From: a virus
Direction: 5' to 3' (one strand)
DNA length: 64,000 nt
Virus record (IMG/VR): IMGVR_UViG_3300046522_000512
Span: 20,791-84,790 of that record
Part shown: positions 1 through 45,246 of the stretch, one piece after another
Position numbering within the stretch: position 1 is the first letter of the stretch
Layout of the letters: each line of letters opens with the position of its first letter
Made by a program: the position numbers and the translations under genes
Notes under the pieces: generated by a model
Databases searched by the model: none
Told to the model about the DNA's origin: nothing
What the model saw: the letters and a program-made list of their open reading frames with translations, nothing else

Positions 1-184
1 CGATCAGGCCCTTGATCTCCTGGGCGTCCTTGACCGCCTTGACGTAGGCGTTGCGCTGCTCGGTGGAGACGACGAATGCGCCGTTCTCCTCCTTGAACGT
101 TCCTGCGATGCGCTCGGCTTCGGCTGACTTCTCGTTGAGCTGGCTCTTCAGCGAGCGCAGAAGGCTCTGGTCGGTGGTAGGCAT
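1..184 (-). CDS. Probable major capsid protein, N-terminal part (runs off the window)
   Basis: ATG at 184 with GGGAG RBS; reads MPTTDQSLLRSLKSQLNEKSAEAERIAG..., coiled-coil-like as in HK97 delta domains; directly downstream of the prohead protease. Confidence 0.7.
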   Translation of the reverse strand, partial: MPTTDQSLLRSLKSQLNEKSAEAERIAGTFKEENGAFVVSTEQRNAYVKAVKDAQEIKGLI

Positions 185-350: not shown

Positions 351-2333
351 TCAGATGGCAAGTGCGGCGAGTGCCGCCTTGACCTCCGTGGGGTCCAGGT
401 GCACGGAGTCGTTCTCGTCGGCCGGGGTGTTCCCCGGGGGAACAGCCGTGTCGGCGTAGGGGATTGTGCTGTCGGCCGGTCCGTCGTCGGCGGTGGCGCT
501 GTCGGCGAGTTCGTCATAGGCGGCGGGATCGCCGTCCCCGTCGTCGGGCCAGCCGTCGGTGATCGAGTACTTGTCCAGCCACGAGTCGGAGTCGTCCGAG
601 CTGCCGTCGTCCATGGGGGCGCCCTTCTTCGACAGGGCGTCGAGGAGTTTCCCGATGGTGGGCCGCAGGTGTTCCAGGTGCGCGGGTCCGGCGTCGGACA
701 CCTCGATCAGCGCCGTGGCGTCCTGAAGAGCCCGGTCGGTCGGCCTGATGAACCGCTCGCGGGTGGACTCCGTGGCGTCGGCCAGGCGCTCCGGCCCGGC
801 AACAGGGGTGGCCACGGTGGTGAGTTCCACCTGAACGGGCACGCCCAGGTCCACGTCCCGGCCCGACACGGTGTACGGGATGGCGTACGTGTCCGTGTCG
901 CCGTCGTCGTAGCGGCTGACGATGATCCGGTCGGGGTAGGTCGCCTCGATCGCCACCCAGCAGCATTCCGGCTGCTCGGGGCCCCCGCCGCCGCGGTCGT
1001 CGTTGTCCGGGGTGAGCAGTGCGCGCGCAGCTTTGCTGAGCTGGTCGCGGAGCTGCTCGTAGGAGTAGGGCATGGGTGTGCTCATGAGTCGCTCCGGAAG
1101 CTGAATGGGTTCGGCGGACTTGGCCTCGATGACGATCTGCGCGGCCGACTTCTGCTCCAGCACCGCGGCGTGGGTGGCGGCCGACTTCGCCTCCATCACG
1201 ATCTGCGCCGCCGACTTCGCCTCCATCGAGGCGGCGGGTGCGGCCGCGGTCTCGTCGGAGGCCGCGCCGAGCGGCACCTCGAACTCGTCGCCGCCGCGCA
1301 CCACGTGGAGCGTCGTGAAGGTGACCGGGGTGGCCGGCACCGGGTCGGTGCTGTCCAGGTCGTATCCGAGGGTGACGTGCGGGGTGAACCCGTGGTCGTC
1401 GCGGACCGCCTCCGAGTACGGGGACCCGGACAGGGCGAGTACAACCTGCTGCCGCAGCTCTGCGAGGCCCGGCACGTCGACCGGCACCCACGTGGGTATG
1501 CCGTCCCCGGTGTCGGGAAAGACGCCGAGGCCGCCGAGGGTGCCCGTCAGCGGGCCCGAGTCGTTCACGGCCGGGGTGACGATGTCGCGCAGGTCGTCAG
1601 GGTGCCCGCCGAGGTCGCCGACGTCGCCGAGGTAGGCGAGCGTGATGTGCAGGCTCTCCGGGGCGGTGCCGTCGGGCTGGGCGATGGATGCGGCGACGTC
1701 GGCCGGGATCTTCAGCGCGACCATCACGCCGCGCCCCACCTGCGACTCGGCCGCCTTCAGCTCGACCGCCGACCATGTGGCCTTGCGCTCCAGTTCGTCG
1801 CGCGCCCGGGTCGCTGCCTTCACTTCGATGCTCCGCGTCATCGGGTGCGCGCCGTGAAGTACGGGGCTCACCTCGTACAGGTCCAGGTCGTGGATGATGC
1901 GGACGCCGTCGTGACGCTTGGACGCGCCGCCCGGGGGGACCTTGAAGCCGATGGAGAACTGCGCTTCGCCGTTCTCATGCCACTGGCGGACCTGTTCGTA
2001 GGCATCGCGGCCGCGGGTGGTGCGCAGGTTGTACTGGCAGGTCGCGACAAGCGCTCCGGCCTCCTTGGGCCACACGGAGCCGCCCGGGATCGAGGCGAAG
2101 CGCGGATCTCCCGGCATCCACTCCTCGATCGACAGGACACTGCCGACCGGCTCTTTCCAGTCGTGGCTCCACACCGGCTTTACACGGCGGGACGCGAGGG
2201 TGCGGGTGAACGCTCCGGGGATGATGAGGTCTTCGACATCGTCGACCACGCCTGTGACTGCGAAGATGGCGCGGACGATGCCCTTTCCGCCGCGGGCGCG
2301 GCGCAGCATTGCGGTGGGCGGCGGGCTCGGCAC
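351..2333 (-). CDS. HK97-type prohead protease fused to a 2H phosphoesterase (2'-5' RNA ligase/Acb1-like fold) and an acidic scaffold-like C-terminus
   Basis: Protease motifs GAFTRTL, WSHDW, FSIGF, LYEVSPVLHGA; two HxT motifs (LHITL, PHVTL); AGGAGGA RBS. Confidence 0.88.
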   Translation of the reverse strand: MPSPPPTAMLRRARGGKGIVRAIFAVTGVVDDVEDLIIPGAFTRTLASRRVKPVWSHDWKEPVGSVLSIEEWMPGDPRFASIPGGSVWPKEAGALVATCQYNLRTTRGRDAYEQVRQWHENGEAQFSIGFKVPPGGASKRHDGVRIIHDLDLYEVSPVLHGAHPMTRSIEVKAATRARDELERKATWSAVELKAAESQVGRGVMVALKIPADVAASIAQPDGTAPESLHITLAYLGDVGDLGGHPDDLRDIVTPAVNDSGPLTGTLGGLGVFPDTGDGIPTWVPVDVPGLAELRQQVVLALSGSPYSEAVRDDHGFTPHVTLGYDLDSTDPVPATPVTFTTLHVVRGGDEFEVPLGAASDETAAAPAASMEAKSAAQIVMEAKSAATHAAVLEQKSAAQIVIEAKSAEPIQLPERLMSTPMPYSYEQLRDQLSKAARALLTPDNDDRGGGGPEQPECCWVAIEATYPDRIIVSRYDDGDTDTYAIPYTVSGRDVDLGVPVQVELTTVATPVAGPERLADATESTRERFIRPTDRALQDATALIEVSDAGPAHLEHLRPTIGKLLDALSKKGAPMDDGSSDDSDSWLDKYSITDGWPDDGDGDPAAYDELADSATADDGPADSTIPYADTAVPPGNTPADENDSVHLDPTEVKAALAALAI

Positions 2334-2421
2334 GGCGGGTTCCTCCTAGGCGGGGCTCTCGATGCGCGCACCGTGCCCCGCCCGGGGGGTTAGCGTCCCG
2401 CCGTGGCCTTCCGGCCGGGCC

Positions 2422-2994
2422 TCACTTCCACGGCTTGCCCTTCTTCTTCTTGGGGTCCGCGGGGTCCACTTCGCCGCCCGAGCCGTCGGCCGGGTCGTTG
2501 GGGACGGCTTCGTCCGCGGTGCCGTAGTCCAGCGCGAGGCCGCCGTCGTCCGCGGCCGCGGGATCGGCGGCGGGATCGCCGGCCGCCGGGTCCTGCGCTG
2601 CGGGGTCCTGCATCGCGGGGTCCTGCGCTGCGGGGTCCGGCTGGTCGCCGGTGCCGCCGGACTGCGCCATACCGGCGTCGTCCACGTCGATGGCCCACGT
2701 GTCCGGGTCCGAGTAGCGCCACACCTGCCCGGACTCGTCACGGACCCAGCACGTCAGCGTGCCGTCCTCCGCCTTGTCCAGCCACGCCTGCTCGCCGTTG
2801 TTGCCGGAGAAAGAGGCGTACGCCTGCGCCGGATCGGTCTCGTCGCCCTCGTCGTAGGCGTCGCCCGCCCACGGCCGGGCGTCATCCTGATGCGGTGGCT
2901 GAAGCTCCGGCGGCTGTTCGGCAGCCGGGTCCATGCCCTGCGCCGCCGGGTCCTGGGACGGGGGCAGCGCCTTCACCTCGAATCTGTAGTCCAC
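2422..2994 (-). CDS. Acidic hypothetical protein in the head operon with AQDPA repeats
   Basis: Typical codon bias, leaderless GTG after a class I promoter, basic C-terminal tail. Confidence 0.7.
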   Translation of the reverse strand: MDYRFEVKALPPSQDPAAQGMDPAAEQPPELQPPHQDDARPWAGDAYDEGDETDPAQAYASFSGNNGEQAWLDKAEDGTLTCWVRDESGQVWRYSDPDTWAIDVDDAGMAQSGGTGDQPDPAAQDPAMQDPAAQDPAAGDPAADPAAADDGGLALDYGTADEAVPNDPADGSGGEVDPADPKKKKGKPWK

Positions 2995-3186
2995 GCCGCG
3001 AAGGGTCGGGAGTTCAAGAGCTTGCGTCTCGGCCTCCGCCAGGAGCGTGGCCCGGACGACTGCGCCCGCCTGTGGCCGGTCGGTTCGAATTGCAACAAAT
3101 TGGTTAAAGCGCTAGACATGTGGCGAGAGCCCGGTGTCCGATGGGCATCGTTTTCAGCAGGGCCCCACCTCAAGGGTGTGAGCGCT

Positions 3187-3229
3187 TCAGGCGAACCCGA
3201 CCGCCTAGTTCCCGGTCGGGTTCGCCTGA
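3187..3229. terminator. Perfect 17-bp inverted repeat, probable terminator
   Basis: TCAGGCGAACCCGACCG-9 nt-CGGTCGGGTTCGCCTGA. Confidence 0.6.
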
Positions 3230-3303
3230 CGGCTTTTCCGACGGAACGGTCGCGTACGTCCATCCACGCCCACACCATGTACCTGCCGGTACGACCAGTC
3301 TGC

Positions 3304-3432
3304 TTACCTCCAGGCCGCGATCGCGGCAATGGTTGCCACGATCAGCCCGAGGGCCGCCAGCGCGACCATCCAGCGGTCAGCGGGCCGCCAACGGCGTTTC
3401 CCCTTCTTGGGGTGCTTCTTGGGGTGGTGCAT
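3304..3432 (-). CDS. 42-aa small membrane peptide (basic N-terminus + one TM helix)
   Basis: GGGAGGA RBS; MHHPKKHPKKGKRRWRPADRWMVALAALGLIVATIAAIAAWR. Confidence 0.55.
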   Translation of the reverse strand: MHHPKKHPKKGKRRWRPADRWMVALAALGLIVATIAAIAAWR

Positions 3433-3523
3433 GGGTTCTTCCTCCCATCGCGGTCTAGTGGACGGATAGGCATCTGCACATCTGCCTCAGCACCACCTCC
3501 AATGAGCAGGTGTCACTACCCAT

Positions 3524-3584
3524 ACCACACGCACTGTGGTCTACGCCACAGGCTATGTGGTCTAAACCAATAAATCTCTGTGGG
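3524..3584. promoter_or_regulatory. Tandem palindromic operator-like sites CCACA-N5-TGTGG, 21-bp period
   Basis: ACCACAcgcacTGTGGT, GCCACAggctaTGTGGT and a degenerate third copy, between divergent genes. Confidence 0.5.
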
Positions 3585-3670
3585 GCGCTGACCAGGAATA
3601 ACGCTGCTTCAGGCAACAAACTGGTCTGCATCCGTGGTGAGATCGCGTAGCAGATAGCTAGGATCGGGCT

Positions 3671-3928
3671 ATGGCTAAGACACAGTTGAACGCGCGCGTG
3701 CCGGAGGAGCTGGCCGACGAGGTCCGCTCGGCCGCGAGTAGGGCAGGCATGGACATTGGGGACTACGTCGCCGCAGTCCTTGAGGCTGACCTGGCGGCCG
3801 CGTCAGGAAGCCAAGAACTGCGACAGGCTCGCGCGAACATGCACGCTGCCGCGGCCTACAAGAAGTGGATGGCCAGTGAAAAGTCCGAAGAGGGCGCGAT
3901 GAGCATGGAGGAGGTCTTCCACGCGTGA
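3671..3928 (+). CDS. Putative antitoxin (ribbon-helix-helix)
   Basis: N-terminal QLNARVPEEL RHH pattern; C-terminal MSMEEVF; TAGGAT -10 six nt upstream (leaderless); 4-nt overlap with the next gene. Confidence 0.65.
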   Translation: MAKTQLNARVPEELADEVRSAASRAGMDIGDYVAAVLEADLAAASGSQELRQARANMHAAAAYKKWMASEKSEEGAMSMEEVFHA

Positions 3929-4173
3929 CGGCGATCCCGGCAAGGTTCGCTGCCCACGTCGGCGAGACCATCAAGAACCTGCCCGGCCCTGACAAGGAGG
4001 AGCTGCACACCGCGATCCTGCGGGCGTGTGCGGACCCGATGTCGTGGCCACAGGCCGACAAATACGAGATGGACGAGACGGTGCGCGTCATCACGACGCG
4101 CACCGCCATCGTCCACTACGTGATCCTTCTCGGCGCGGACCCTCACCTGTGGCTCTTCGCCATCACGGTCTGA
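3925..4173 (+). CDS. Putative RelE/ParE-like toxin
   Basis: 82 aa, coupled to an RHH gene; helix-helix-DP followed by beta strands, as in RelE/ParE folds. Confidence 0.5.
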   Translation: MTAIPARFAAHVGETIKNLPGPDKEELHTAILRACADPMSWPQADKYEMDETVRVITTRTAIVHYVILLGADPHLWLFAITV

Positions 4174-4390
4174 CCGCGACCACGCTGGTCTTCTGCCGAA
4201 GCAGAGCCAGCACCGCATCCGCGTCGCCCGGGTCGAGATCCCGCCGGGGCCCGAGGGGGCCGAGCAGCACCGGCGTGCCGGCGTACTGCTCGACCATCGC
4301 CCTCACCCGGCGGGACCCGGTGACCGGGCCCCCGCCGGGGATCTGGACCTGATAGGCGGAACCGTCCTCCATCGTGCCCGTCACCAGCAT
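4163..4390 (-). CDS. Small hypothetical protein following the giant gene
   Basis: AGGAAGG RBS and ATG at 4390. Confidence 0.6.
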   Translation of the reverse strand: MLVTGTMEDGSAYQVQIPGGGPVTGSRRVRAMVEQYAGTPVLLGPLGPRRDLDPGDADAVLALLRQKTSVVAVRP

Positions 4391-4407
4391 GCTTGCCTGC
4401 CTTCCTG

Positions 4408-7400
4408 TCACCGAGTGGCGAGCAGTCCCAGAAGGAACGCCCGCAGGTCGTCATCCCTGTACCAGTCGCCCGAGAACATCGTCGCGAGCCCGCGAGCCAC
4501 GATCTGGTCATCGGTGACGTCCTCCGCCCGGCCGCCGAACAGCCGCTCCAGCAGCGCATCCAGCGTGCTGCGCCGGGCCCCGGGCCGTCCGGTGTGGGTC
4601 CGGGTGAACCCGAACACCTCCTGCGCGGCCAGCAGATCCGGGTAAGAGCGCTGAAGGTGAGCCACCAGAGCGTTCACCGCAGTGCCGCGGCCGCCGTCGC
4701 CGAGGTCAGCGACCGTGGCCGTACCGGAGTCGGCGTCGTACGAGCCCGCGTCACCATCGACCGCGGTCACGAACCGTGCCGTGCGGTCCGCGAGCCACTC
4801 CCGCGGCACGTAGCCCGCAGCATCGGCCAGCGCTCGCGCCGCCGCCGGGTCGCTGCTGTGGCTCAGCGTCAGCCGGTTCCTGCCACCGGGGCCCATCTCT
4901 CGGACCTGCGCGAGGGTGTCACGCACCGCGCCGGGCAGCGCGGCCGTGTACGCCTGGTGCAGCCGGTCGGCTTCCTGCCGGGCGTGCTGCGCTTCCACCT
5001 GCGCCGCGGCGATCTCCGGACCGAGGTCCGGGGCGCCCTGGCCGGCCGCCACCGCCCGCAGGTTCCGAACACGGGCCTCCGCCCGGTCCTGGTAGCGGCG
5101 GGCGTGCCGCACCGTGCCGTGCGGGTCGTCGCCGAGCTCCGGCGCGGCCGCCATCAGCCGTGCCACGACATCGGCGTCCACGTCCGTACCGGCCGCGCGC
5201 ACCGCGGCGAGATGCCGCAGGGCGTGCCGCCCGGGTCCGCGGTCCGCAGCCCGGTCCATCGTCCAGCCCGTGCCGTCCTGCACGCCGGGGAGCTGACCCG
5301 CGGCGAGCGAGGAGCGGGTGGCCAGCCGGTACCAGCGACGGCGCCGGGAGACCTGACCGAAGTGGCCCGGGGCGGGCAGCAGCCGCGCCCAGTGCGCCAC
5401 CTGGTCGGCCAGCGACATGCCGTCCCCGTGCCGCGGCAGGGAGCGGGCAGCGGCCGCGATACGGCGCAGGCGCCGAGTCTCCGGCCACGATCGCACCCGC
5501 CGCACCAGACCCTTGCGGAACCGGTTGATGGCCTTGAACGGGTACGCCACCGCGGCGGCGAGACCCTTGAGGAACGCGGCCACCAGCTCCACGACCCGGC
5601 GGGCGATCTGCACGAGCGCCGCCGTGATGCGGGCGAGCATTCCCGGCCGCTCGCCTTCCGGCAGCTGGGCCGCAATGCGCTGCGCTGCACCGTCACGGCT
5701 GTCAGCCATGCGCTGCGCGAGCCGGGCGACGATCGCCGCGCGCCGCTCCGGAGTCAGCAGCCCCGTATCGGCATCCCGGAGCGCCTCGCCCACCGCACCA
5801 TCGACGTGGCCCTGCACCTCGTCGTCGACTGGGGAACCCGCACCCGCGTCGGGCTCGGGAGTGGCCTCACCATCGGCGCTGCCGTCCCCGTCGCCCACAC
5901 CGGTGTCGAGGTCGGGCTCATCCGACTCCGACCGGTTGCGCAGCGACTCCGGGATCAGCCGCAGCAGGTCCGCAGCACGCGCCGCGGTGTCCTCGGGCGA
6001 CTCCCCGTCCAGCGGCTCCAGGTCGTCGAGCGTCTGCACCGCAGCCTGCACCGCGTCGATCCGCGAGCGCATCGCCATCCGCCGCAGCTCGGCGAGCAGC
6101 CGCTCCCGCTCGTCGCCGGTGATACCCGACCCGTCGACCACCGCCTGCGCGTCCCTTTGCACGCGCCGCATCGCCGACCGGAGCGCGCCCGCCGTGACCT
6201 TCGCGGCGATCTGCTCCCGGAGCTGGTGAATGCTGCCCGGGGTCTGAGTCCCTTCCACCGCGGCGTCGACCACGGCCCGCGCGACCAAGTCGCCGTAATC
6301 GGCCGTGAACGCCGCCGTGTCCAGGCCCGCGTTCGGGTCCCGAGCTTCGGCGTCATCGTCGGCCGGAACCTGCGGCTCGGGCAGTTGGTACAGCGGGTCA
6401 CCGGCGGCCATGGTCCGCTCGGAACGCTGCCCGTTCCCGTCTTCCACCGTCAGGACCCGCAAGCCGCCCGGGGCGTCCTGGACGTCCGTGACGCGGTACG
6501 AGGCCATCTCGTCGGGGTTCGTCTCGTCCGGCAGGGCGATGGTGTCACCGACACCGACCGAGCCGACCGTGCCCGGCTCCGGCCGCCCCGCCGGCGCGCT
6601 GTCCGCATCCGGGTTCGGGGCGTCGGCCTCGCCGGTCAGGCGGCGCTGGTTCGCGGCGAACCAGGCAGCCGCGGGCCGTTCCCGGTCCATGACGCTCACC
6701 GACTCGGCAAGGGATCCGCCGAGGATCTGGAACGTCCTGGTGGTGGACGGCCTACCGGCCAGGCCTTCGAGCTCGACCGTGACCTGCTTGTCGCCGACGC
6801 TGACGGACTGCACCTTGCGGGTGAACCAGTCGCTGCCGTTGGCGCCGGTGCCGAACACCAGGTGATCGCCCGGCTTCAGCTCGGTCGCCTTCACGATGCG
6901 GCGGTCTGCCTGATCGGCGACCCCACCGCCTTCAAGGGCGCTGTCGTAGGGCAGGGGCCGGAACGGGGCGCGGGCGCCCACGCTGTCACTGATGAACCGG
7001 CCGTCAGCGTTGGCCAGGAGGAGATTGACTGTCTTCCCGTCCTCGCTTCGGATCCCTTCCACGACCAGCAGACGGGAGGGCTCCCCGTTGACCGGCGCCA
7101 CGATCACATCACCGGTACTCAGGTAGCGCGCTTCGGTGGTCATACCGCCGTCGTCGTTGCTCGTCCCGGTCTGCCCGGCCGCCTGGTCGAGGCGGTCAGC
7201 GGCCCGCTTGGCTGCGCGGCCCTCCGCCGTCGATGGGTCGGCGTTCTGGCGAAGGCCTTCAGCTATCGCGGCCGCCTGCTCGGGGGTGACGGGCAGGTCC
7301 CGGGCGATCCGGGCCGCGCCCTGCTGCGCCTCGGGGGCGTCGCCGGGGGCGGTGCCCCGGTCGGCGACCGCGTCGCGCTCTTCCGGTGCAAGCTCCGGGT

Positions 7401-10400
7401 CCACGGTCGGCCCGGTCACGGGCTCCACCGTCGGGGCCGGCTCGCGGCTCGTGATCGGCTCCTTGCGCCGCTGGGCGGCCGGTGTGCCGTCCTGCCCGTT
7501 GTTGTCGGTGTCGCCGATGACGCGCAGGTCCGTGACGGGCATGGGCTTCATGCCCTCCGTGGTGGCGACGGTCGCGGTGTCGCCGTCCAGTTCCTCCACG
7601 GTGCCGAGCATGTTGCCGTCCCGGTCGCTGACCCAGTTGCCGACGTTCACGCGGTGCCCGTCCGTCGTCCAGCCGGACGGGCGCGCCGCGCCGCCGTCGA
7701 TGACGTTGAGGGTGCTCGGCTCGTGCGCGTCGTCGGTGCGGTCGTCGCCGAACTGCACCCGCACACCGGCGGAGTTCGCCCCGACCACGACGCCTTCGCG
7801 GCCGTCGTCGTCGGTCACGACCGACCCGGGGAACAGGCCGTTGCCGCCGCCGTCGGTCGCCACCCGGTCGGCAACCCGGCCGGTGAGGACATCGGAGTCC
7901 GCGCCGGTCTGCACCGTGGTGGCTTCGTCGCCGATCTCGCGAGTGGCGCGGGCCGCCGTGGCGTCCGGCTTGACCCACACCGACTCGCGCTTGGTCGAGC
8001 CGTCCGGGGTCTCGGCGATCAGCACGCGGACCATGTCCTGAACGCGCCGGGCCCGGACCGTCGGAACCTCCGTGGGCCCGTCCATGACGTACCCGGCCAG
8101 GGTCCGCGCGGTGCCGCCCTTGGTGATGCCGTCGATCCGCACCACGTCACCCTGGCGGATGTCGGAGACCTTGACCCACTCGGCGGGCCGCCCGTGCACA
8201 GGCTCGGGCACGGCCGGGCGCTCCGGCTCCGCTTTGTCCGCAGACGGCTTCGGGGTCTCCTCGGCCGGGGCGGGCCGCTCCTTGGCCGGCGCCGGGGTCT
8301 TCGCCGCCGGGGCGGGTCGGTCCTCGGCCGGAGCCGGGGCCGGGGTCTCCTTGGCCGGAGCCGGGGCCGGGGTCTCCTTGGCCGGAGCCGGGGCCGGGGT
8401 CTCCTTGGCCGGGGCGGGCCGTTCCTCGGCCGGGACCGGGGCCGGGGCCGGAGCCGGGGTGTTGGGGGCGGCCGCTGGGCGCTCCTCCGCCGGGGCCGGG
8501 GTGTTGTCGCCGGAGGACGTGGCCCGCTGGGGGGCGACCTCGGGGGCCTCGCCGACCTGACGGCCGTACCTGTACTCCTCCACCGGCAGGTTGACGTCGT
8601 CCGCGGACATCAGGCGCTGCGCGTTGTCCCCGACGGGGATGACGAACGTGTCCCCGGCCAGCTGGTGGGCGCCCACCACACTGGAGGCGACGTGGATGCG
8701 CACAGCCTTCTGCCGCTTCTTGTTGATGGTGATCGAGGCCGGACGGGGCTCACCCACCACGTAGCCGGTCCTGCGGGTAGTCGCTCCCGGGTAGCGGTTG
8801 GTGATCCGGCCGTCGAGGTCCACGATGTCGCCCGCTCGGAGGTCGGTGACGGGGACGCTCTCCGCCCTGTCCTTGCCGCCCTCGTCCACAAGGTCGTCAA
8901 GGAACTGCTTGGAGGCCCGAGCCTTGCTGATCTCGTGGTGCATGGCTCGCGGGTCCTCGGGTCGCAGCACGTCCAGGTAGTCACGGATCTCGTCGGCCAG
9001 CCAGCCGGGGCCGAGGATGTGCTTGTGCTTCAAATCGGCAGGCTGGTACTTGTAGTGAGTGGCGTCGAGCCACCGCAGCTCGTCGTGCAGGTGGTCCAGG
9101 TCGTCCGCCACGTTCCCGCTGATCGTCTCGCCACGGCCGAGGGCGTCGGCCAGCGCGCGAATCTTCCGGTAGCGCTCCATGTCCGCCGGGTTGTCGTTCA
9201 GCGACTCCAGGCCGCGCAGCCCCTCCTCCTCGGGCGGGAACCCGAGGCTGAGGTTCGAACCCCTGAAGTCCCAAGCGATGTCGGGGTGGACGATGCTCAG
9301 GTCGGGCTCGCCCTGTTCCATGTCCCGCAGTACGAGATGGGCGATGGCCGCATCCCGGGTGGAGAAAGTGCCGTTGTGGTAATGGTTGCCGAGGGGCATC
9401 TCGCCCTCCCACCGCTCCTCGGGCGGTGTCATGTAGAAGCCGGTGGTGTGCGGTGCGCGCACGCTGCCGATCAGCCGGCCGTTGCGCCAGACCTCTTCGC
9501 GGCCATGGTCCGAAACGAGCTTCGGGGAGGGCGTGAACCCCTGCGCAGCGAGTTCCTGTATGCGCTCGGGTGATCCGAACAGGGCGCGCTCACCCTCTTC
9601 GCTGATGATGCCGTTCTCGCCGGTCTGGTACTGCCTCAGCTCGTCGTGCGTCGGGATGCGCCGACCGTCCACGGTGCCCGCACGGCGGCCCTCTCCATGT
9701 GCGGCGTTGATGCCGTACTGGGACGTGGGCGCCGGGGCATCACCCGTGGGGGCCGCGCCCTGACCGTCGCCCGCGCCTGGCGCGTCGGAGCCGCCCGCGG
9801 AAGGCGCGTTCGAGGATGAGGCGCCGTCTTGGCCGCCGACCGGCGTCGCACCGCCCTCGCGCGGCACGTCCGCCCCGCCGGCCGCAGGGGCGTCGGTGTC
9901 AGGGAGGCGTGCGACCTTGTCGTCCGCGAGGATCGTCACGCCGTTGCGGACGTTCGGCTTGGCGTCGGGGTTGTCGCTCAGGTGCAGGCGCCAGGCCTTC
10001 AGGCGCTCCCCGTCGCGGGTCGCGGTGACACTGCGGGCCGGGGCGAGGAGGAAGCCCTCCCGGGTCACCTTGCTTCCGGCGGTGTTCTGCGTCTCGACGC
10101 GCACTCGGTCACCGCGCTGCGGCTCGTTTGGGTTGACGATCTCGGCGCGCGGCTCGTCGCTGATGTCCGGGACGGACGGCGTCCGCTCCGGCCGCTGCGG
10201 CGTGCTCTCCGCCGGCTCGGGGACGTCGGTCCGGTACTGCACATCAGCGCCCTCGGGGATGGCCACGATGTCGCTCGGGTGGAAGCGCCGAGCCTGGTTC
10301 TTGACCTTCCAGTAGCCGTCTCCCTGCCAGTCGTTGGAGCGCTCCACCACGACGTTCATGTGCTGAGTGCGCTTGCCGTCCTGGCGGGCGACGATCCGGA

Positions 10401-13400
10401 AGCGGTCCCCGATGCGGGGCTGGATCCGGGAGCCGTCAACGGCCTGCCAGCCCTCCGGCACGGGCACACGGGACGCGCTGGCCCGCTCCTCCCAGGTTTC
10501 CATCCGGCGCTTCAGGTCGGAAGTGTCCTCGCGCCCCGGGTTGCCCTCCGGGAGCCGCTCCGCCAGCTCGCCGTCGTAGAGCGCCGCCGACTCCCTCTGC
10601 ACTGCGTCGCCGCCCTTGAGCGGATCCCGCGACTCGACCTCAATACGAACGCCGCCGTTGAACTGCCTGGTGTGAAGCACACGGCCCACCAAGTGCTTCG
10701 GCTCGTTGTACATCTGGTCTGCCCCAACGATGTGCACCCAGTCCCCGACCTGGATCTCGGACGCGGGAACCATGTCGCCGTCGTAGCGCTGCCGCAGCGC
10801 CGCGAACTCGTCGGGCAGCCCCGCGGCAGGGTTGGCGTTGTCGGCCTGGCCGGTACCGGCGGGCGTGCGACCGGAGCCGTCACCGCGGCCGCGGCCGCTG
10901 CCCGTGCTGGGAGTGCTGCTGTCGGGGAAGTTGGGCAGGCCCATGCCGAGGCCGCCCGGGAGGCCGCCACCGCCGCCGTTGGGGGCGCCGTTGCCGAGCT
11001 GGTTGCGGCGACGCCGGCGCCTGTCCCGGTCGTCATTGTTCTCGGACTCGTCGGGCTTCGGCTCGCCGTCCCCGGACTCATCGGGCTTCGGCTCGTCGGT
11101 GCCCGGCTCGTTCGTCTGGGACTCGCCGGTCTCGGGCGCGTTCGTGCCTGACGCGCCGGTCTCGGGCGCGTTCGTGTCGCGGGAGAGCCGCTCGGCCCAC
11201 TCATCGCTCTCGCCGTCGGCGACATAGATGTGGTCACCTGCGTGCCCGTGTGTCGAGAGGAGCAGCCGCCAGCCGTCGACCTGGCTGCCGCCGCGCCACA
11301 TCTGCGCCCGCTCCGGCGGCTCCAACAGGTCGCCCTCGGCCACGTATATGCCGCCGATGAACTCGTTCGACCCGCGGACCCGCAGACGTTCGCCTTCCTG
11401 CAGCGAAGCGACATCAGCGGCCTCGCCGTCCGGGCGCCGGGAGATGGCTTGGGCGGCTTCCCACTTACGGGCGTCGTCCTCGTTTTCCTTCTTCACCCAC
11501 TTGTCGCGGAGCTTGGCGTTCGCCTTCTTGCGCAGAGCAGGTTCGGGCGCGGTCAGGTGAACGACCCAGTCGCCCGGGTGCTCGGTGTGGCTGCCCGTGG
11601 AGAGGCTGGTCGTGCGCGGCCTGCCCTCCTTGCCGTCGGCGTGCAGGTTGACGACGACATGGGCGGCGTCCAGACCGTCGAACCTGTTGTCCTTCGCGTA
11701 ATAGCCTCTCGCCGGGCGGTAGAGGTCGCCGGGCTTGAGGTTCTGCAGACGCGTCCAGCGCATGCCGTCGGGGAGTTCGGCCTCTCCGACGATGAACTGA
11801 CCGTCACCGGTTCTGGGATCGGCGACAGGAAGGTACTCGCCGCCGAGGGCGCTACGCCTGTTGTTGTAGTGGTGGTACCCGGAGAACGACTGATCGTCGT
11901 TCTGCCCGCGCCAGGCGTGGAAACCCGCGTAGTACGCCTTGACGTCGTCACTCGCCGAACTGAGGGATCGCCCCACTTCGGGGAAAGCTCCAGTGAGCCC
12001 GTTCGCTCTCTGCTCGGGGTCGTCGCCACCCGCAACGCCAACGAGGAAGTCCTTGACCTGCTGCTCTGTGAGCCCGTGCCGGTCGGCATCCGCCACAGCG
12101 GCAGCAATCTGGTCCAGCACAACCTGCCGGCTCCGCTCGCTGTCTCCGGCCCACAGGGCACCCAGCTTCTCGGCGGCATCCTTCATTCCGGATCGCGTAG
12201 CGATGCGCGGGATCATGATCTCCCGGCTTGCGGCACGGAACTCTCCGGCAAGCCGCTGTGTGGCCTCTCGCATGGAGGCTGCATGACCGGCGAGGAAATC
12301 CCTCTGGTCGCCGTCGTACTGCGCGAGCAGATGACGCGTGTTCTCGTCGAACTGGTCCAACGGGAAGGCGTCACCCGCGTCACCGATCCACCGGGGAGCC
12401 GCCTTCGGGCTGAGTGGCCTGGAGGCGGGGCCGGGCATGTTCTTGACCCGGTCCAGAAGCGCATTCCGCGGACCGTCCGGGGCCGGGTTCGCCCACACGC
12501 CGGCCCACTTGCGGTACTCGTCGACCTCCTTCTGGTCGGGCCGGGTGTATTCGCTCAGGTCGAGCCCGGGAACGTCCGGGATCTCCAGTTCGGGCACCGG
12601 GCCGGGAGGAGACATCCGCTCGACCTCATGACCGGCAGGGACTTCGATCACGTCGTCCCACGCATGCACGGCATGCGGCGTGTCCGCGATGTGCACCTGC
12701 CACGACATGACCGGGTCGTCGCGGCGGGGGCCGTCTCGCCTCGCCGCCGCGCTGACGACGTATCCCTCGCGGGTGACCTCGTTGCCGTCCGCGTCCGGCA
12801 CCGTGGCGCGGATGTACTGGCCGGGCTTGACCGAGTCGATGTCGACGGGGCCGAGCGCCGGGGCTTCGGGAGCGGGCAGTCGCTGGATCTTCTGGTCGGC
12901 GGGGATGTCAACCTGGTTGCCGCGGCCGGGCGACTGGTTCGGCCCGTTCCCGATGTACAGGATCCACGCGTCGAAGTCCCCGTGCCGGGGGCGGTGACCC
13001 TTGCCCTTGCGGGGGTTGGCCAGGAGGTAGCCCTCGTGGACTCTGGTCCTGTCCAGGGTGTCCGACACTTCCACGCGGACGTAGTCGTTGATGCGGGCCT
13101 GGTCCGCGTCGATGGTCTCCCCATCGGCCTCCGGCTCGGGACTGGCCTTGCCCGGGTCGCCGTCGGCGGCCGGGCTGCTGTCGCTGCCGTTGAGGTCGGC
13201 CAGCTCTGTGCGGACCTGCGCCGCGTCGAGCTTGACCGGGGCGTCGGTCTTCGACGTCTCCCGGTGCCCGTACGGGACCCAGTCCGGGGCGTCCACGTCG
13301 CGCGGGACGTCCGGCTCGCCCGGAGGGGGCATGGTCTGCCAACTGTGCCAAGCGCGTGACGCCTGTGCACGGATCTTGTCCGCAAGCCTCTGGAGAACTG

Positions 13401-16400
13401 CCTGCCGACGGCGGCCCTCGGGGGTCGACGCGTCCACGCTGTCCGCGGTGGCAGTGGCCTCCTCCGCGAGCCGGTTCATCTGCCGGTAGTTGAGGCCGCC
13501 CTGCCCCCAATGCTTCGCAGCCTCACTCAGTTCATGGTCAGAGGACTTCGCCCACTCCTTGGCGAGCTTGAAGAACTCCTCACGCTGAGCGTCGCTCAGC
13601 TCGCTGTACTGGACTGTGTCCCTGCCCTCTTCGGGCCGCAGGTGCCGCCAGGCCGTGTCCTTCAGCGCCACTCGCATTCCGTTGTCGCGGCGGTTGCTGT
13701 CGACGGCCTGAGCGGCTTCGCGCGGCCCGTACAGCGGGTCGGAGGCCGACTGCGCCGTCCCGCCGCCGGTCTGGCCACCGCGGGCGTCCTGGCCATGCCA
13801 CACAGTGCCGCGGCGGCGGATCCAGCCGACGACGTTGCCGTCCTCGTCGAGAACCTGCCCGTGACCTTCCTCCAAGTCCAGATTGGCCAGACGCGCGCCG
13901 TAGAAGAGCCCCAGGCCCTCGGGGGTCTGCGCCGACTCCAGATCCTGCTGCCGCTTCTCCCCGCGGGCTGCTTCCTGCGCTGTGGGCGCGTTGTGCTCGG
14001 CCGTGCGTGCCTCGCCGGGCATGGACAACTGCCGCGGCTCGTACGTCCGCGGAGCGCCGCCGCCGTCGAGGACAACGACCTTCCCGTCCTCGGCGAGGAT
14101 GACGCGGCCCTCACCGTTCGGGGTGACGGCCGTGTCGCCGTTGTGCCACTCGCGGGCGGTAGAGCCCTCCTGGGCCTGTCGGTTCGGCCCGGCGGGCAGC
14201 TCAGTCGGGAGGGTCAGGCCCTGGAGCTTGGCGGATTCCTTCACATCGCGGCGGTGCAGTGCTTCCTCGGCGAGCTGCCGCGACTCCTCGGTCTCGTCCA
14301 GAACGACGAGCTGCCGGGGATCAAGGCCGAGGCCGCCTCCGCCTTGAGTGGCGAGCTGGGCGGTGTAGAGGGTCGTGCGGCCGTCTTCGTCCACCGTCTT
14401 GGCCATGACGAACCGCGAGCCCCACAGCTTGTCGCTCGACGAGCCCTCCCGGATCACATGGCCGGGCTGGATCTCGTTCGGCGGGACCGCCCGGAACCCA
14501 TCGGGGAGGGTGTCTGCCCACGCCGGTCTCGGGAGGGCAGAACCGTCGTCCTTACGCACCGCGATGAAGTGGTCGGCGTACCAGTTTGGGTCCGCCCGGA
14601 ACTCGTGGCCGGCGTCGTCGCGCAGGATTGGATTGCCGCGGGTGTTCACGACCCGGGCGGTGACGGTCTCGCCGTCGTCGTTGCGGTAGTCGACGTAGTA
14701 GCCGACCTGATAGCGGATGTCGAAGCGTCGCCGGTACGCCTCCTTGTCGGCCGCAGTGGCATCCGGGCCGGGCGGAACCTGGTCTCCCGTGATGATGCCA
14801 GTGGCAGGGTCGGGCGCAGCCGGGCTGCCGGTGTTCGCCTCCTTGCGGGGCTCGGTCGTCTCCGGGCTCGGCTGGTCGTTCTTCAGTGCGGCGAGTTCGT
14901 CACGGACCTTTCCGGCGTCGAGCTTTGCCGGGGCGCCGCCGCTGGCCTCCGGGTAGCGGCCCTCAGCCACGGCCTGGTTCAGCTCGTCCTCGGACGCGAC
15001 CGGCAGTTGCGGCCGGTCCTGCCCGTTCCGGCGCTGGACCTGCGCGGTGCCGATGTACTGCTCGCGCTGCTGCCCGTCCACGTCGTAGCGGGCGATGAGC
15101 CCGGGGCCGTCGAGGCGGGCGACCTCCCCGACCTGCGGGGTGCCGTCTTCCTCCTGGAAGTTGATGCGGTCGCCCGGCTTGAAGTCGTCGAGGACCCAGT
15201 CCCGCCGGTACTCGCCGGTCGGCGGCTGCGTCGGGTCGCCGTCGTTGACAGCCTCGAACACCCAGCCCAGGGAACCGGCGTCGAGGACGTCGGTCGCCCG
15301 GGTCACCGCCACGTAGGCGACGCGCAGGTCTTCGTCTTCGGGGACGGTGTCCCACTTGATGTGGCCGTTGTCGTCGTACTCGGGGCCGCGGAAGTCGTCC
15401 GCGATCCGCACCTTCTCGGACTCCAGGCCCTTGGACTTGTGGGCCGTCGTCACGAGCAGATCGTGCGGCTTCTTCTCGTCGACCAGGCGGCCGCCGCCGG
15501 TGTCCTCCTGCGGGTAGAGCTTCGCCAGATGGGCGTCGATCTTCGCCTTCGCGTCTTCCAGCGACAGCTTGTTGTCGACCTGGTAGTTGATCGTCCTTCC
15601 GTTCTTGGTGAAGGACTCGGTGCGCTTGCCGGGCTCGTAGTAGTAGCGGCGGGACTCGCGGTCGTACAGCAGCTTGCCGACGCCGTTGGTCTTGGCGTCA
15701 CCGAGCCACCGCTTGAGCTGGTCGACCTTCGGGTCGTTCCAGTCGAGCGTGACCCACACGCGGCCGCCGACGTTCTCCGTGTCCGCGGCCTGCGCCCCGG
15801 ACTCCATCAGCTTGTCGATCTCGTCGGGGTGTTTGTCCAGCAGCGCGAACAGGCTCTTCAGTTGCTGGAGCTCCGGGTCGGAGTTGACCTCGTCGAGGAT
15901 GTCCTCGTACGACTTGCCGTTGAAGCGGGCGAGCTCGGCGTGGCTGGTGCGCTCCCCGTTGGCGAGCGCACGGGCGGCCGTCACGAACTCCTGCAAGTCC
16001 TTCACGCCGCCGGACACGGCGATCGTGCGGCCGGCGGCGAGCGCCTCCACCGCGGCGAGCGCGACACCGGCGTTCGTGCGGGCGATGACCATCGTCTCGT
16101 CGCCCGGCTTGATGTTGCCCAGGCGCGAGTCCTTGCGGTCGAAGCCCTTCAGCCGCATCCGCGTGCCCAGCAGGCGCAGGAACCTGTTGCCGACGTTCGC
16201 GACGGCCGGGCCGAACCGGAACGACTGGGTGAGCGTGGCGCGGGCGTCGACCGGGAGCTTGCTGAGCGCGTCGGAGGCGCCGCGGAAGCCGTATATGGCC
16301 TGGTTGGAGTCGCCGACCGCGACGACCTGAACACCCTGGTCGATGGCGGCGCGAACCACGCCCTCCATGACCGGGTTGACGTCCTGCGCTTCGTCCCAAT

Positions 16401-19400
16401 ACAGGGTGTCGGCGTCGATCTTGAACCCACCGACCGCCCACATCTTCACGATGTAGTCGAAGTCCATCGGCAGGTCTTGACCCGCGTCGCCCTTGGTGGG
16501 GTCGGACAGGTTCGCCCACATGCGGTCGGCGAGCGGCTTCACCGCGTCGAACAGGTCGCGGGCCTCCTGCGCCGTCTTGGCGCCGGTGATGTGCTGCGGG
16601 CCCATCTCCGCGTCCGACGACTTCGCCCACGTCTTAATCATCAGCTCGGCGACAGTCGCGGCACCGCCCGGGGCCAGATCCCGGTCCCCGGCCTTCACCG
16701 TGTCGTACCAGCGCATGCGGTCCGCGATCTGCTGCGCGGACAGCTTCTTGAACCCGCCCGCCTTGTGGTTGGGCAGACGGTTGTTCAGCCGCTTGTCCGC
16801 GACCTTCGCCGCGTACCCGTTGGCCGTCGAAGCGGTCAGGTTCTTCGCGTACTCGCCGCGGGCCTGCGCCTCGCGCGCCTCGTTCGCCACCGACCGGTTG
16901 AACGCGAGATAGACGATCTTCTTGCCCGGCATGCGGTGCGACAGCATCTTGAGCGTCGACGACTTGCCCGTACCGGCGAGCGCCATCACGGCCATGTTCA
17001 GGCCGCGGCGGGCCGCGCCCTCGATGATGATGCCCTGCTCCTCGGTGGGCGGGTACGCCTCGTTCGCCGCCGCCGCGGTGTCGATCCGCGCCCACTCCTC
17101 GTCGGAGTAGCCGCCCGCCTTGGCCGCGGGCAGGTCTTCCACCCGGTGCACCAGGCCGGTGGTCTCCGCGTCGTTCAGCCCGTACCCGGCCAGCCGGTCA
17201 CGGATGACGTCGCCGCGCTTGCGCGGGATGACCTTCCCGTCTTCGCCGTACTCGGGCGTCGGGCTCCACCGGCGCCGCTCCTCTTCCTCCAGCTCGAACC
17301 GGCGCTGCTCCAGACGGAGCCGGTACGCGAGATCGACGGAGTCGGTCGCGTCCTGCAGCGGCGCGATCTGCTCGTCGAGAGTGTCGATCTCCTCGCCGAT
17401 CTGGTCGCCGTCCATGTCGGCCGGCGGGGTGGCCGGGACCGGACGGGCATCCGACGGCGCGGACGGCCGCGGTGCCTTGCCAGCCGAGTCCGGGGCGCCC
17501 TGCTGCCTGGCGATCACGTCGCGGCGGTGACGCAGCTCTCGCTGAACGTCTGCCACCTGCGCCCCGAAGCGGCCAGAGCGCTCCTCCGGGGTCATCTCCT
17601 GGTCGTGCAGGGCATCAGCCAGGTGAAGGGCCGTCTCGCTCGCGGGGCCGAACACTCCGCCCGCGGCCTCACCCCACTGCTGGTCAAGGAACGTGAACAG
17701 CTCGTTGGACAGTTGTCCGACGCGGTCCCGCGGCTCGTCGCCGAACTGCTCCTGATAGCCCGCCTTCAGCGAATCGAGTGCGTGGCGGCTGGTCGCCTTG
17801 TTCTTGGCGAACAGGGCGCTCATCGGCAGGTCGCTGGACGCCGGGGCCGGCTGCGGGGCGTCGGCGGACCGCTGCCGCTCGGGCGCCTTCGTGACTCGAT
17901 TGAAGGGGATCGTCTCGCGGTCACCCGCGGGTCCGTCCACGACCACACCGTCATCGGTGGTCTCCACGACGGTGCCCAGCTTGCGCTGCGCGGGTCCGCT
18001 CTCGTCGTACCAGTAATGGACCTTGTCGCCGGATTCGAACTGCTTGCCGTCGTCCGCGGACGGAGTCGGCTGGGGCAGAGGCGTCGTCGGGGTACCGGCG
18101 GCAGGCGGGTTCTCCTCGAACACGCCGTCACGGGTCCGCCCCATGATGTCGATGTACGGCACTTCGCGTTCCGCGCCGTTGCGGCCACGGAGAACGGCCG
18201 TGTCCTGGTTGGCCGAGCGGACGAACTCGCCGCTCTGCTGCATGTTCATGGCGTTCCGGTTGGAGAAGGCCACGGTGTCACCGGGCTGGAAGTCGCCGTC
18301 CTGCCAGGCGCGGCCGGTGGAGGGCGCGTCGCTGCCCTTGGCCGGGGTTTCCGGCGCGGGGGCCGGGGTGCCCGTCAGGCTGCGCCGGAACTGCTCCTGC
18401 GCCTCCCGCTCGATGCGGTCGCGCTGCGCGTCCTCGCGGCGACGCTTCTCGACCGTCACCGCGTGGCGGGCAAGGTAGTCGTCGGTGACCCGCATGAAGT
18501 TGTCCAAGGGCGCCTCCATGCCCTGGCGGTCGGTGTCGGTCAGCCGGTTCCGCAGGCGCTGCGCGTCCTCGCGGGCACCGGCCAGAGATGCGGCCGTGTC
18601 CTCGGTGTCGCCGGACTCCTGCGCGGCGATGGCTTGGAACACGTTGTCGCGCAGCGAACGGGCCGGGGCGGGCATGTCCCGGCCCCACGTGGTCTCGGCC
18701 GCGCTGGTGACCTGACCCTGCGCGCCTTCCACTCCGGTGATGCCCGCGCGCCACTCGCGCTCGTTGGCGAACGGGCGCACCGTGTCGGCCGGCTTGGGGG
18801 CCGGGCGAGGGGCGGCCGGAGCCTGCGGGGCAGGCCTCGGGGATGGAGGCTGCGGCCCCGTTCCGGGCGTCCCGGACGCCTGCGGCGTCTGGCTGTTGCG
18901 TTCCTGGGGCGCCTCGTCGGCCGCGTCCAGGGCTGCGAGACGGGCCGTGCGGGCTTGTTCCCGCTCGTCGCGCAGAGCACGTGCCCGGCGCTCGCCTTCG
19001 GGCGTCATGACGTAGTACTTGATCGAGCCTCCGCCCACGCGGGGCTTGCTCCGCTCGTCGGCGTACCCGAGGCGGAGGAGGCGACGGATCACGTTCGGGT
19101 GGGCCTCGATCTGCTGGCCGTCGGGCCCGAGGCCCGAGTTCAGCGCGCTCTCAAGCGCGCGGGCCTGCGCGGTCGTCAGGCTCGGCTCGGCCTCGGGCTG
19201 CGAGGCCGGGGTCTCCTTGGGGGCGTCCTGGCCCTCGGGCTCGGCGCCGGTCCGGTCGGCGGCTGGGGATATCTCGGCGAGGTCGGCGCGGACCTTCTGC
19301 GGGTCCAGCGTGACCGTTTCGCCGCTGTTCTGGCCGCTGGGTGTCGAGGACTGTTCGGCGGCGGCGCGGGCGGCGCGGTTCTTCTCGCGGCGCTGCTGCT

Positions 19401-28839: not shown

Positions 28840-28846
28840 GCGGCGG

Positions 28847-28877
28847 ACCATGCACACCGGGGATGGTTAACGTCGCG
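28847..28877 (-). promoter_or_regulatory. Class I (late-type) promoter of the giant gene
   Basis: CGCGACGTTAA-N14-CATGGT-N7-ATG; one of 8 copies. Confidence 0.75.
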
Positions 28878-29126: not shown

Positions 29127-29749
29127 GACGTCGTCTCCATTGCTGAGGAGGGCAGGGGGCGGGGGCCGGTGCCGTCGTACGGGGCGGCGAGACCGGCATT
29201 GATCAGGGCGCGATTGAGCTCGTGGCCGTAGGGGGTCGCGATGGTGGCGAGGTAGCGGCCGTACTTCTCGCGGCGCTCGGTGTCGACGGTGAACGCGGGC
29301 CCGTGCGCGGCGACCCACTCGCGGACCCAGTCGGCGGCGTGCTTCCCGGCGTCGGTGTTCTTCTCGGCGGTGTTGATGCCGAGGAGCCGGACGCGTTCGA
29401 AGGCGCGGAGCTCGAACCCGAGGTCGATGGCGAGGTCGAGGGTGTCTCCGTCGATGACGCGGGTGATGCTCGCGCTGTAGGTGTGCGGGGCCGGGGCGTC
29501 GGTCAGGGTCGCGAGGTAGCGGCCCTTGGTGTCGCGGGTGGTCTGGACGGTGAGCGGCCCGCCGCTGGCCTTCAGGTGTGCGCGGGCCCACGCGGCGGCC
29601 TTCTTCGGGTCGTCGGTGGTCGTGTCCGCGGTCGCCACGGCGGTCAGGCGGACGCGTTGGGCCAGGTGCAGGTCGAACCCGAGGTCGATGTCGAGGTCGA
29701 GGGCGCCCGCGCGGCCGATGCTGAGGAGGGTGGTGCGGTAGGTGTGCAT
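29123..29749 (-). CDS. Thermonuclease (SNase) family protein with a degenerate N-terminal duplicate domain
   Basis: RVIDGDT, RVRLLGINTAE, EKYGRYLA, LNRALINAGLA; start overlaps the portal stop. Confidence 0.88.
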   Translation of the reverse strand: MHTYRTTLLSIGRAGALDLDIDLGFDLHLAQRVRLTAVATADTTTDDPKKAAAWARAHLKASGGPLTVQTTRDTKGRYLATLTDAPAPHTYSASITRVIDGDTLDLAIDLGFELRAFERVRLLGINTAEKNTDAGKHAADWVREWVAAHGPAFTVDTERREKYGRYLATIATPYGHELNRALINAGLAAPYDGTGPRPLPSSAMETTS

Positions 29750-38029: not shown

Positions 38030-38038
38030 AGTCCGGGC

Positions 38039-38581
38039 ATGCACCCGGTCATCCGTTCCAGCAAACGCCTCGACCTGCGGGAGCTCGCCCTCACGGACGT
38101 GGGGGCGTTGCACGCCATCTACGGCAGCCCCGTCGCGACCGCACACCTGTCGTTCGAGCCCCGCAGCCGAGAGCAGGTCGAACAGATCGTGGCCCGGTCC
38201 GTGGTGGCCGCCGCGGAGACACCCCGCACCGAGTACGCGCTCGCCGTCATCGAGAAGGAGACGGGCGAGCTGATCGGGTCCGGTCGTCTGGCCCTCGATC
38301 CCCACCAGCAGCGCGGAGCCACCATCGGCTTCGCGCTGCGCCCGCAGTCGTGGGGACGGGGTTACGGCTTGGAGACGGTGCGGCTCCTTCTCGGCCTCGG
38401 CTTCAACGACCTCGACCTGCACCGTATTTGGGGCGCCCGTGCCCCGCTCAACGTCCCTTCGGCGCGCACCATGGCGGCCGCTGGCATGGTCGAAGAGGGC
38501 GTCATCCGCGGGCACGTCCTGAAGGGCGGAGGATGGCGGGACTCCGTCGTGCACGCAATCCTCGACCGCGAGTGGGACTGA
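38039..38581 (+). CDS. RimJ/RimL-type GNAT acetyltransferase
   Basis: WGRGYG, LHRIWG, NVPSAR, GMVEEG. Confidence 0.9.
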   Translation: MHPVIRSSKRLDLRELALTDVGALHAIYGSPVATAHLSFEPRSREQVEQIVARSVVAAAETPRTEYALAVIEKETGELIGSGRLALDPHQQRGATIGFALRPQSWGRGYGLETVRLLLGLGFNDLDLHRIWGARAPLNVPSARTMAAAGMVEEGVIRGHVLKGGGWRDSVVHAILDREWD

Positions 38582-45096: not shown

Positions 45097-45246
45097 TCTG
45101 AGATACAACAACTGAAGAGAGCCGAACCGCGCGGGTGGTTCGGCTGACGCCAGGCGCACGAGCGAGCGCCAGGCACACGCTCCCGAAACCAGGAGGACTC
45201 TCGTGTCCGCTCTGCGCCCCTTTCTTCTCGGCAGCTCCCTTCTGAC

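Follow-up and report, generated by a model that had tools for sequence, protein, structure and literature searches.

A conserved, predicted helical motif common to the head protease and a giant polyvalent protein in a family of Streptomyces phage-plasmids

The head-maturation protease and a giant polyvalent protein encoded by an element of a Streptomyces phage-plasmid family have a short helical motif in common, found in no other protein of the element, of five complete relatives or of five host genomes. The DNA analysed is a stretch of 64,000 nucleotides, bases 20791-84790 of the 84,790-bp virus record IMGVR_UViG_3300046522_000512 (70% G+C; CheckV completeness 64%), which is referred to here as the window. 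One copy of the motif, hereafter the tag, lies at the C-terminus of the protease, and three further copies lie within the giant protein, in disordered linkers between its enzyme blocks (Table 1). The tag is a genuine, selected helical element that is confined to these two places. It has about an even chance of being a common docking peptide for the interior of the procapsid, one that can be cut on the protease and that provides the giant with additional, cut-resistant attachments.

One motif in two head proteins

The protease is identified by a match to Pfam Peptidase_S78, as expected for a caudoviral prohead serine protease (50.2 bits against a cut-off of 21, E 4e-13), by a match to the PHROG head maturation protease family (4e-23), and by the position of its gene, between the portal gene and that of a capsid protein with the HK97 fold and a scaffold domain at its N-terminus. 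It also matches Pfam 2_5_RNA_ligase2 (2e-11). Its S78 domain (residues ~17-174) is followed by a 2H phosphoesterase (~200-355), a small alpha/beta domain (~425-500), helices, an acidic tether and finally the tag. AlphaFold2, supplied with an alignment of 25 sequences, models the protease (17-174) and 2H (200-355) domains confidently and leaves the ~75-residue acidic tether disordered, with residues 571-645 at a predicted local distance difference test score (pLDDT) <50. Beyond the tether it predicts an isolated helix, residues 648-659, that begins right after D647, the tag as a whole having a pLDDT of 54-61. In the same alignment the tag is a conserved island following ~60 gap-rich, unconserved acidic columns, with V644, L646, D647, E650, V651, K652, A653, L655 and A656 conserved at 88-100%. 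The variable acidic leash of clade A proteases also contains a second mini-motif, W...Y..TDGW followed by acidic residues, and no recurrence of this W...Y...DGW motif was seen in the giants.

The giant contains an Eco57I-like methylase (residues ~1459-1543), an SNF2/ResIII/Helicase_C helicase (~2133-2713) and a UvrD-like helicase (~4139-4524), together with many small domains, all connected by disordered linkers. Its SNF2-related domain, ResIII and Helicase_C reach the curated Pfam cut-offs, and the Eco57I-like methylase, UvrD_C and AAA_19 matches fall below theirs. With several unrelated enzymatic domains and a phage head-gene context, the giant is, as judged from its predicted architecture, a DarB-like polyvalent protein. 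Tags are found in three of its at least eight long linkers, and each stands at the start of a stretch of low hydrophobicity. An AlphaFold2 model covering residues 4560-5300 predicts helices at tag 2 (segment residues 89-100) and tag 3 (653-663), each within a 65-residue stretch at pLDDT <50. The preliminary description of this DNA had reported one copy at the end of the protease and three in disordered linkers after major modules of the giant; all four peptides are where it put them, on the minus strand, and the isolated helices in low-confidence, weakly hydrophobic regions bear out the linker setting.

Six-frame searches indicate how exclusive the motif is. The strict pattern LD[PA]xxV[KR]xxLA matches only the four tags, both in the window and in the whole 84,790-bp genome, and the looser LDxxxV[KR]xxL still returns nothing else from the window; a still looser pattern, in which V may be replaced by I or L, adds one out-of-frame match in the whole genome. 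From residue frequencies, ~1e-3 strict matches would be expected by chance in a protein of 8149 residues, against the three observed. A matrix constructed from nine protease C-termini alone gives the giant copies scores of 14.7, 12.0 and 7.9 bits, one unrelated helicase segment falling among them at 13.0 bits, and scores >12 arise in shuffled giants at 5.7e-6 per residue. When a profile of 37 tag copies was run against five whole Streptomyces genomes (44 Mb, six frames), all 15 matches at E<1e-3 lay in giant or protease reading frames of resident elements, the next-best match reaching 22 bits (E=0.002). On the window's own genome and five complete elements the profile matched the giant and the protease alone, and pattern scans of IMG/VR found full tags confined to this Streptomyces phage-plasmid family. 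A wider set of tagged cargo was looked for in the element, the five complete relatives and the five host genomes and was rejected: no other protein carries the tag, which is therefore not a general cargo label.

Around 35 related Streptomyces elements were recovered by genome and IMG/VR searches, and all have one gene order, with the giant placed between the portal-MuF fusion and the protease in all relatives (at least 25). The nearest cultured relative is Streptomyces phage Gilgamesh, whose 'hydrolase' gp52 is the protease, with the tag at its end, and whose gp48 (4624 residues) is the giant. In every sampled protease homologue the tag terminates two residues ahead of the stop, and a back-translated protease-type pattern run against IMG/VR found 15/15 matches at the same distance from the protease stop codon. 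The giants of 11 sampled elements have two or three internal copies at orthologous junctions, which lie behind the DarB-like block, behind the UvrD-like block and ahead of the block that comes next. Orthologous copies of tag 1 are present in the relatives designated G001, G002, G008, G009, G011 and G012, and of tag 2, where they follow ...EGRY..., in G002, G003, G009 and G011.

The sequence around the internal copies is unalignable, acidic linker. In a comparison of the window with G009 (86-93% identical), non-motif positions of each copy have changed and motif positions have not. At the DNA level, synonymous codons differ among the four copies, which indicates that it is the peptide, rather than the DNA, that is under selection. 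Two other origins were considered and rejected. A DNA-level repeat or recombination box at module junctions does not fit the differing synonymous sites, nor a DNA identity that is no greater than the peptide and codon bias require, and membership of a larger repeated domain does not fit flanks that are unrelated and of low complexity. Conservation in homologues and absence elsewhere were among the points on which the preliminary description had staked its proposal; the motif survives both, being conserved across the ~35 elements and absent from the rest of the element and the host, and a profile of the kind it had called for matches only the giant and the protease.

Two classes of tag, a putative cut motif and the head module

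The first half of the motif reads as an N-cap box (a hydrophobic residue, D/N or in one variant S/T, P/A, any residue, often E, then V), and the second half places V, L and L on one face of a helix. Positions common to the protease and giant copies are V2, L4, D/N5, P/A6, V9, a basic residue at 10, L13 and L/I16. Beyond these, E8, K10 (20/21), A11 and A14 are fixed in the protease copies alone, and R10 (24/24) and D/E12 in the giant copies alone, in which positions 8 and 11 vary. The sole exception among the 21 distinct protease tags is DEVRAALAALRS, in the closely related L055 and L056, where R replaces K. At 70% G+C arginine is the default basic residue, so the retained lysine signals a special need. 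On this sequence evidence the two classes are not interchangeable, because the protease copy overlaps a probable cut site, EVK|A (the bar marks the putative cut), and the giant copies do not.

More divergent relatives help to separate the helix from the basic residue. Clade B (Gilgamesh-like) giants have either no internal copy or a single variant, TVT[LM][ST]PDEV[SN]xxLDAV, which uses S/T as the N-cap and has no basic residue; the conserved core is thus a capped helix and not a cut site. In the distant relative G013 both proteins keep the helix pattern and both are without the basic residue, the protease tag reading T-V-H-A, and the capsid protein retains ExK|S.

The E-V-K|A of the protease tag matches the consensus ExK|[AS], the likely cut motif of the element's head protease. 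Seven further ExK|[AS] sites bracket the 2H domain within the protease. Among the 25 homologues these sites show little or no variation in their E, K and A/S columns, and AlphaFold2 places them in low-confidence linkers. The inserted 2H phosphoesterase itself is intact, with both HxT motifs, and so bracketed it looks, from its sequence, built for release inside the head as a separate packaged enzyme. The capsid protein, in the part of its gene that lies outside the window (in L046), has ExK|S at K99|S100 and K132|S133, 33 residues apart. These sites, T-E-V-K|S-L-G-D and E-M-E-G-K|S, fall in the scaffold region and are present in 14/14 relatives examined. From its distance to the conserved IRDL segment, we take the second to correspond to the HK97 maturation site K103|S104; maturation could involve a cut at K99|S100, at K132|S133 or at both.

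A related site is found at the N-terminus of the giant. A leader of ~20-28 residues followed by an ExK-like site is conserved in 24/24 giants with a sampled N-terminus, and in every giant sampled a near-invariant WNPxLHPRDSKGRF comes next. The site reads ExK|[AR] in most lineages; in a few, E is replaced by D or Q and K is followed by V. As far as can be judged from sequence, the leader is probably both a propeptide that is cleaved off and a second signal, for head targeting or for ejection. It was also considered as a relative of the tag; by-eye comparison showed a different hydrophobic spacing, and it is treated as a separate signal. Lysine precedes the putative cut at all 8 protease sites, at both capsid sites and at the giant N-terminal site. 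At the corresponding position of the giant tags, R always stands before the putative cut, E is third before it in a minority, and A/S follows in about half. Elsewhere in the giants, 25 ExK|[AS] sites were seen against ~43 expected from shuffles, a scarcity that is no more than suggestive, the sequences being related.

The head module lies on the minus strand, in the order portal-MuF fusion, giant gene, a few small genes, protease and major capsid gene, the portal-MuF gene being directly upstream of the giant gene. The complete capsid protein (L046:671-1975, minus strand) matches the HK97-like solved chains 9lbm, 9osb and 3qpr at up to 3e-43 and bears its own HK97-type N-terminal scaffold (delta) domain. 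An earlier label of 'protease/scaffold' for the protease is accordingly uncertain. A conserved protein of ~81 residues (M.VTGT.EDG.AY.V...) is encoded immediately 3' of every giant gene in all relatives.

Adjoining the phage genes on the plus strand are an FtsK/SpoIIIE-type translocase, a GmrSD_N-domain protein and a GNAT acetyltransferase, a neighbourhood that fits a conjugative phage-plasmid lifestyle. Relatives sit on contigs of 126-135 kb, one of them labelled a plasmid, and these together with the translocase indicate a Streptomyces phage-plasmid family. In the distant relative Gordonia phage Hanem the portal-to-protease interval (L025 5338-19915) has separate genes, among others for a 2H 'RNA ligase', a VIP2-like ADP-ribosyltransferase and a 971-residue protein, which may be the unfused counterpart of the giant cargo gene, with no common tail.

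Table 1. Features of the head module and adjoining genes, in positions of the window
Feature	Position	Strand	Details
Major capsid protein, HK97-like, first ~61 codons (scaffold/delta domain)	1..184	-	Gene runs off the window
Head-maturation protease (P0001)	351..2333	-	660 residues; Pfam Peptidase_S78, 2_5_RNA_ligase2; PHROG; AlphaFold2
Protease-type tag SVHLDPTEVKAALAAL	360..407	-	Followed by AI and the stop at 351-353; contains EVK|A
Leash mini-motif	555-590	-	Protease residues ~582-598; conserved in clade A
Seven conserved ExK|[AS] sites	1110..1826	-	Protease residues 170-194 (three) and 371-406 (four); bracket the 2H domain
2H phosphoesterase with its flanks	1110-1826	-	Protease residues 170-406
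Gene for ~81-residue protein	~4166-4450	-	27851-28135 in head-module orientation; conserved in all relatives
Giant polyvalent protein (P0002)	4408..28857	-	8149 residues, ~870 kDa; from domains and position
Giant C-terminal module	4411..6615	-	Residues ~7415-8149 (~730), ending ...DDDLRAFLLGLLATR; in every relative, tagless included
Giant tag 3 PVKLDAAQVRTELADL	13192..13239	-	Residues 5210-5225; ahead of the next domain block
Giant tag 2 PAKLDAGKVRDELAAL	14884..14931	-	Residues 4646-4661; after the UvrD-like helicase and a small beta-barrel domain
Giant tag 1 TVTLDPQKVRADLAEI	19270..19317	-	Residues 3184-3199; after the methylase and SNF2-helicase (DarB-like) block and a charged helical stretch
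Giant N-terminus	28708..28857	-	Residues 1-50; ~20-residue leader, L-E-T-K|R site, then WNPDLHPRDSKGRF
Portal protein fused to MuF-like domain	29749..32208	-	Pfam Phage_portal 2e-39, Phage_Mu_F 3e-4; PHROG portal 1e-77
GNAT acetyltransferase	38030-38581	+	
GmrSD_N-domain protein	41583-42269	+	
FtsK/SpoIIIE-type translocase	45246-47339	+	

Proposed docking in the procapsid and its alternatives

How phages bring very large injected proteins into a closed shell is poorly understood, and the two classes of tag suggest a possible route. If the motif is a docking peptide, the self-capping amphipathic helix would dock at one common site inside the assembling procapsid, most likely the N-terminal scaffold (delta) domain of the capsid protein or the inner surface of the shell. 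On its ~75-residue acidic leash, the protease helix would carry the enzyme and the fused 2H phosphoesterase into the prohead, and upon activation the protease would cut E-V-K|A in its own helix and so sever the anchor. In the giant, the two or three copies in the linkers between enzyme blocks would be protease-resistant (V-R-x-D/E, lacking the E and A) and would add attachment points to the ~870-kDa chain, such that it could be enclosed as the shell grows. Its primary incorporation signal would probably be supplied by the N-terminal propeptide and the C-terminal module, making the internal tags probably an accessory docking signal.

A more specific form of this proposal is that two residues act as a code, the cleavable tag (E-V-K|A, always at the free C-terminus of the protease) allowing the protease/core protein to come free and exit the head, and the protease-proof internal tag (V-R-x-D/E) fastening the giant, as an injected enzyme, at several points. 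We regard the code as a tentative and rather doubtful refinement. If true, two residues in a common address tag would set whether a head protein exits or remains as cargo, and the tag pair would constitute a ready-made, switchable loading system for HK97-type capsids.

Several observations weigh against docking as the role of the internal copies. In the G007/G010 lineage (G010 = L039/L040; G007 = L008, L023) the protease tag is kept and none of the three internal tags is present, the giant retaining the three orthologous linkers without any tag. These elements are nested inside the tag-bearing clade in the protease tree, and their giant is 66-79% identical to the window's giant in the flanking modules. 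By sequence comparison, then, all three internal copies appear to have been lost at once in this lineage. At least four clade B giants are also without an internal copy. Whatever packages the giant, the internal tags are dispensable for it. Since K and R are strictly divided between the two classes, and the protease tag keeps a constant distance from the free C-terminus, the classes could bind differently. Nor is a general principle for actinophage proteases supported: in Gordonia phage Hanem and Brevibacterium phage Cantare, neither the neighbouring proteins nor their C-termini show a recurrence of the protease tail.

As the G007/G010 giants and several of clade B lack the tag, and the N-terminal propeptide and C-terminal module are common to every giant, the internal tags are not the sole or an obligatory packaging signal. 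The proposal in the preliminary description of a reusable capsid-loading tag that tethers the giant inside the prohead is therefore upheld in part: a genuine, selected helix is present in both proteins, and it is not the only, or a necessary, signal for the giant.

Among the alternatives, it is unlikely, though worth serious attention, that the helix binds some other common partner, such as the portal-MuF fusion, the central domain of the protease, the 81-residue protein or, after injection, a host factor. The giant gene directly follows the portal-MuF fusion, MuF domains are known cargo adaptors (PMC5512222), and the conserved 81-residue gene follows every giant. However, AlphaFold2 docks the tag on no protease domain with confidence (pLDDT 54-61 for the tag and <50 for the tether), and the portal offers only 12 sites, against ~60-90 packaged proteases in HK97-type phages (PMC12749128). 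No gene was found whose presence or absence tracks the tags, and among the small genes between giant and protease, where a candidate receptor was sought, there was none.

It is less probable still, and in our estimation distinctly improbable, that the motif is a cleavage site for the head protease, the giant being a polyprotein that is cut at each copy and the protease trimming its own tail. The copies do coincide exactly with the boundaries between modules, in linkers that are exposed, earlier work has suggested that polyvalent proteins are processed (PMC5512222), and the E-V-K|A of the protease copy fits the motif kept at the capsid protein, at the seven 2H-flanking sites and, as ExK|[AR], at the giant N-terminus. 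The giant copies nevertheless miss this consensus in the manner described above, and the clade B variants have S or N where the basic residue would be. The G013 protease tag, moreover, has lost ExK and kept its helix while the capsid protein kept ExK|S, and what the two classes have in common is a hydrophobic helix face and an N-cap and not a cut motif.

Very improbable is a third alternative, in which the internal copies are unrelated in function to the protease tail and are either capped helices that stabilise linkers or relics of ancestral fusions: an N-cap box with an amphipathic helix is a generic structural element, each class has distinct fixed residues and G007/G010 lost the internal copies while retaining the giant, but the motif occurs in only these two proteins across 44 Mb, its positions are kept in paralogous and orthologous copies whose flanks have wholly diverged, a matrix derived from the protease alone singles out the giant copies, and with three of at least eight linkers tagged it is not a general linker feature.

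Should docking of the helix in the procapsid be confirmed, it would provide a defined pair of 16-residue peptides with which to study and engineer protein loading in HK97-fold capsids, and a concrete example of a polyvalent protein that is loaded through several points. It would likewise provide an ExK|[AS] sequence rule for this protease lineage, one that predicts release of a packaged 2H phosphoesterase.

Relation to known targeting and loading signals

The C-terminal tail of HK97 gp4 is reportedly a prohead-targeting signal, required for incorporation and taken off by the protease itself, a finding ascribed to Duda, Oh and Hendrix in 2013. In phage SPN3US the C-terminus of the gp245 protease directs incorporation into the prohead and is removed autocatalytically (PMC7411985). 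As a counterpart to these signals, the S78-family protease described here ends in a conserved helix with a consensus cut site. It differs from both in that its tail follows a fused 2H phosphoesterase and is carried on a long acidic leash, and in that the SPN3US and HK97 tails are not known to recur in other head proteins, whereas here copies with K changed to R, and lacking the cut-site consensus, are found in the neighbouring giant.

Encapsulin cargo peptides and the disordered cargo-loading domains of family 2 are, in outline, short, sometimes repeated, and dock to the inside of an HK97-fold shell. As far as that outline goes, the peptides follow another consensus, and the shell is without scaffold domain, protease or DNA. 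The present element does not encode such a shell, its portal, S78 protease and capsid protein with scaffold domain all being present, and no sequence relationship of the tag to encapsulin cargo peptides was seen. The scaffolding protein of P22 offers a further likeness: through a helical element at its C-terminus, in which certain basic residues are key, it binds the interior of the coat shell during assembly. In P22, however, the element is a domain of two helices, part of a dedicated scaffolding protein that exits the shell intact, whereas here there is a single helix of ~12 residues and the scaffold domain is borne by the capsid protein.

In T4, a capsid targeting sequence loads the cargo proteins IPI-III and Alt (Mullaney and Black 1996, cited in PMC7411985 and PMC9024508). 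In the accounts given in these citing papers, the T4 system is similar in that a short peptide is common to several head-internal proteins, entry into the prohead is coupled to cleavage by the head protease, and the cargo is later injected. The T4 signal is described there as an N-terminal propeptide of 10-20 residues that occurs once per protein, attaches to a separate scaffolding core and is invariably removed; the tags discussed here are internal and multiple, probably uncut, and common to a protease C-terminus. Being internal or C-terminal, they do not have the form of a T4-type N-terminal propeptide. The N-terminal leader of the giant, with its ExK site, would fit that form and is the closer formal analogue.

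The counterpart of the giant itself is DarB of phage P1, likewise a very large methylase-helicase antirestriction protein, which is packaged in the head by an N-terminal signal of 30 residues that is sufficient to load a reporter (PMC9024508). That signal is single, N-terminal and without consensus with other Dar proteins, and P1 requires Hdf, DarA and DdrB (PMC9024508); no similarity of the tag to the DarB signal was seen at the sequence level. Polyvalent proteins as a class combine methylase, SNF2 and SF1 modules among head genes near portal and MuF, as the giant does, and are predicted to be packaged and injected (Iyer et al. 2017, PMC5512222). The same survey gives domain architectures and raises possible self-processing by zincin-like peptidases, and describes no linker peptide common to the head protease. 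We have not found described elsewhere a protease tail that recurs as internal, multiple and consensus-altered copies in a neighbouring giant cargo protein. The known loading signals of T4 and P1 are single N-terminal peptides, whereas in these Streptomyces elements the tail of the protease has apparently been copied into the linkers of the cargo.

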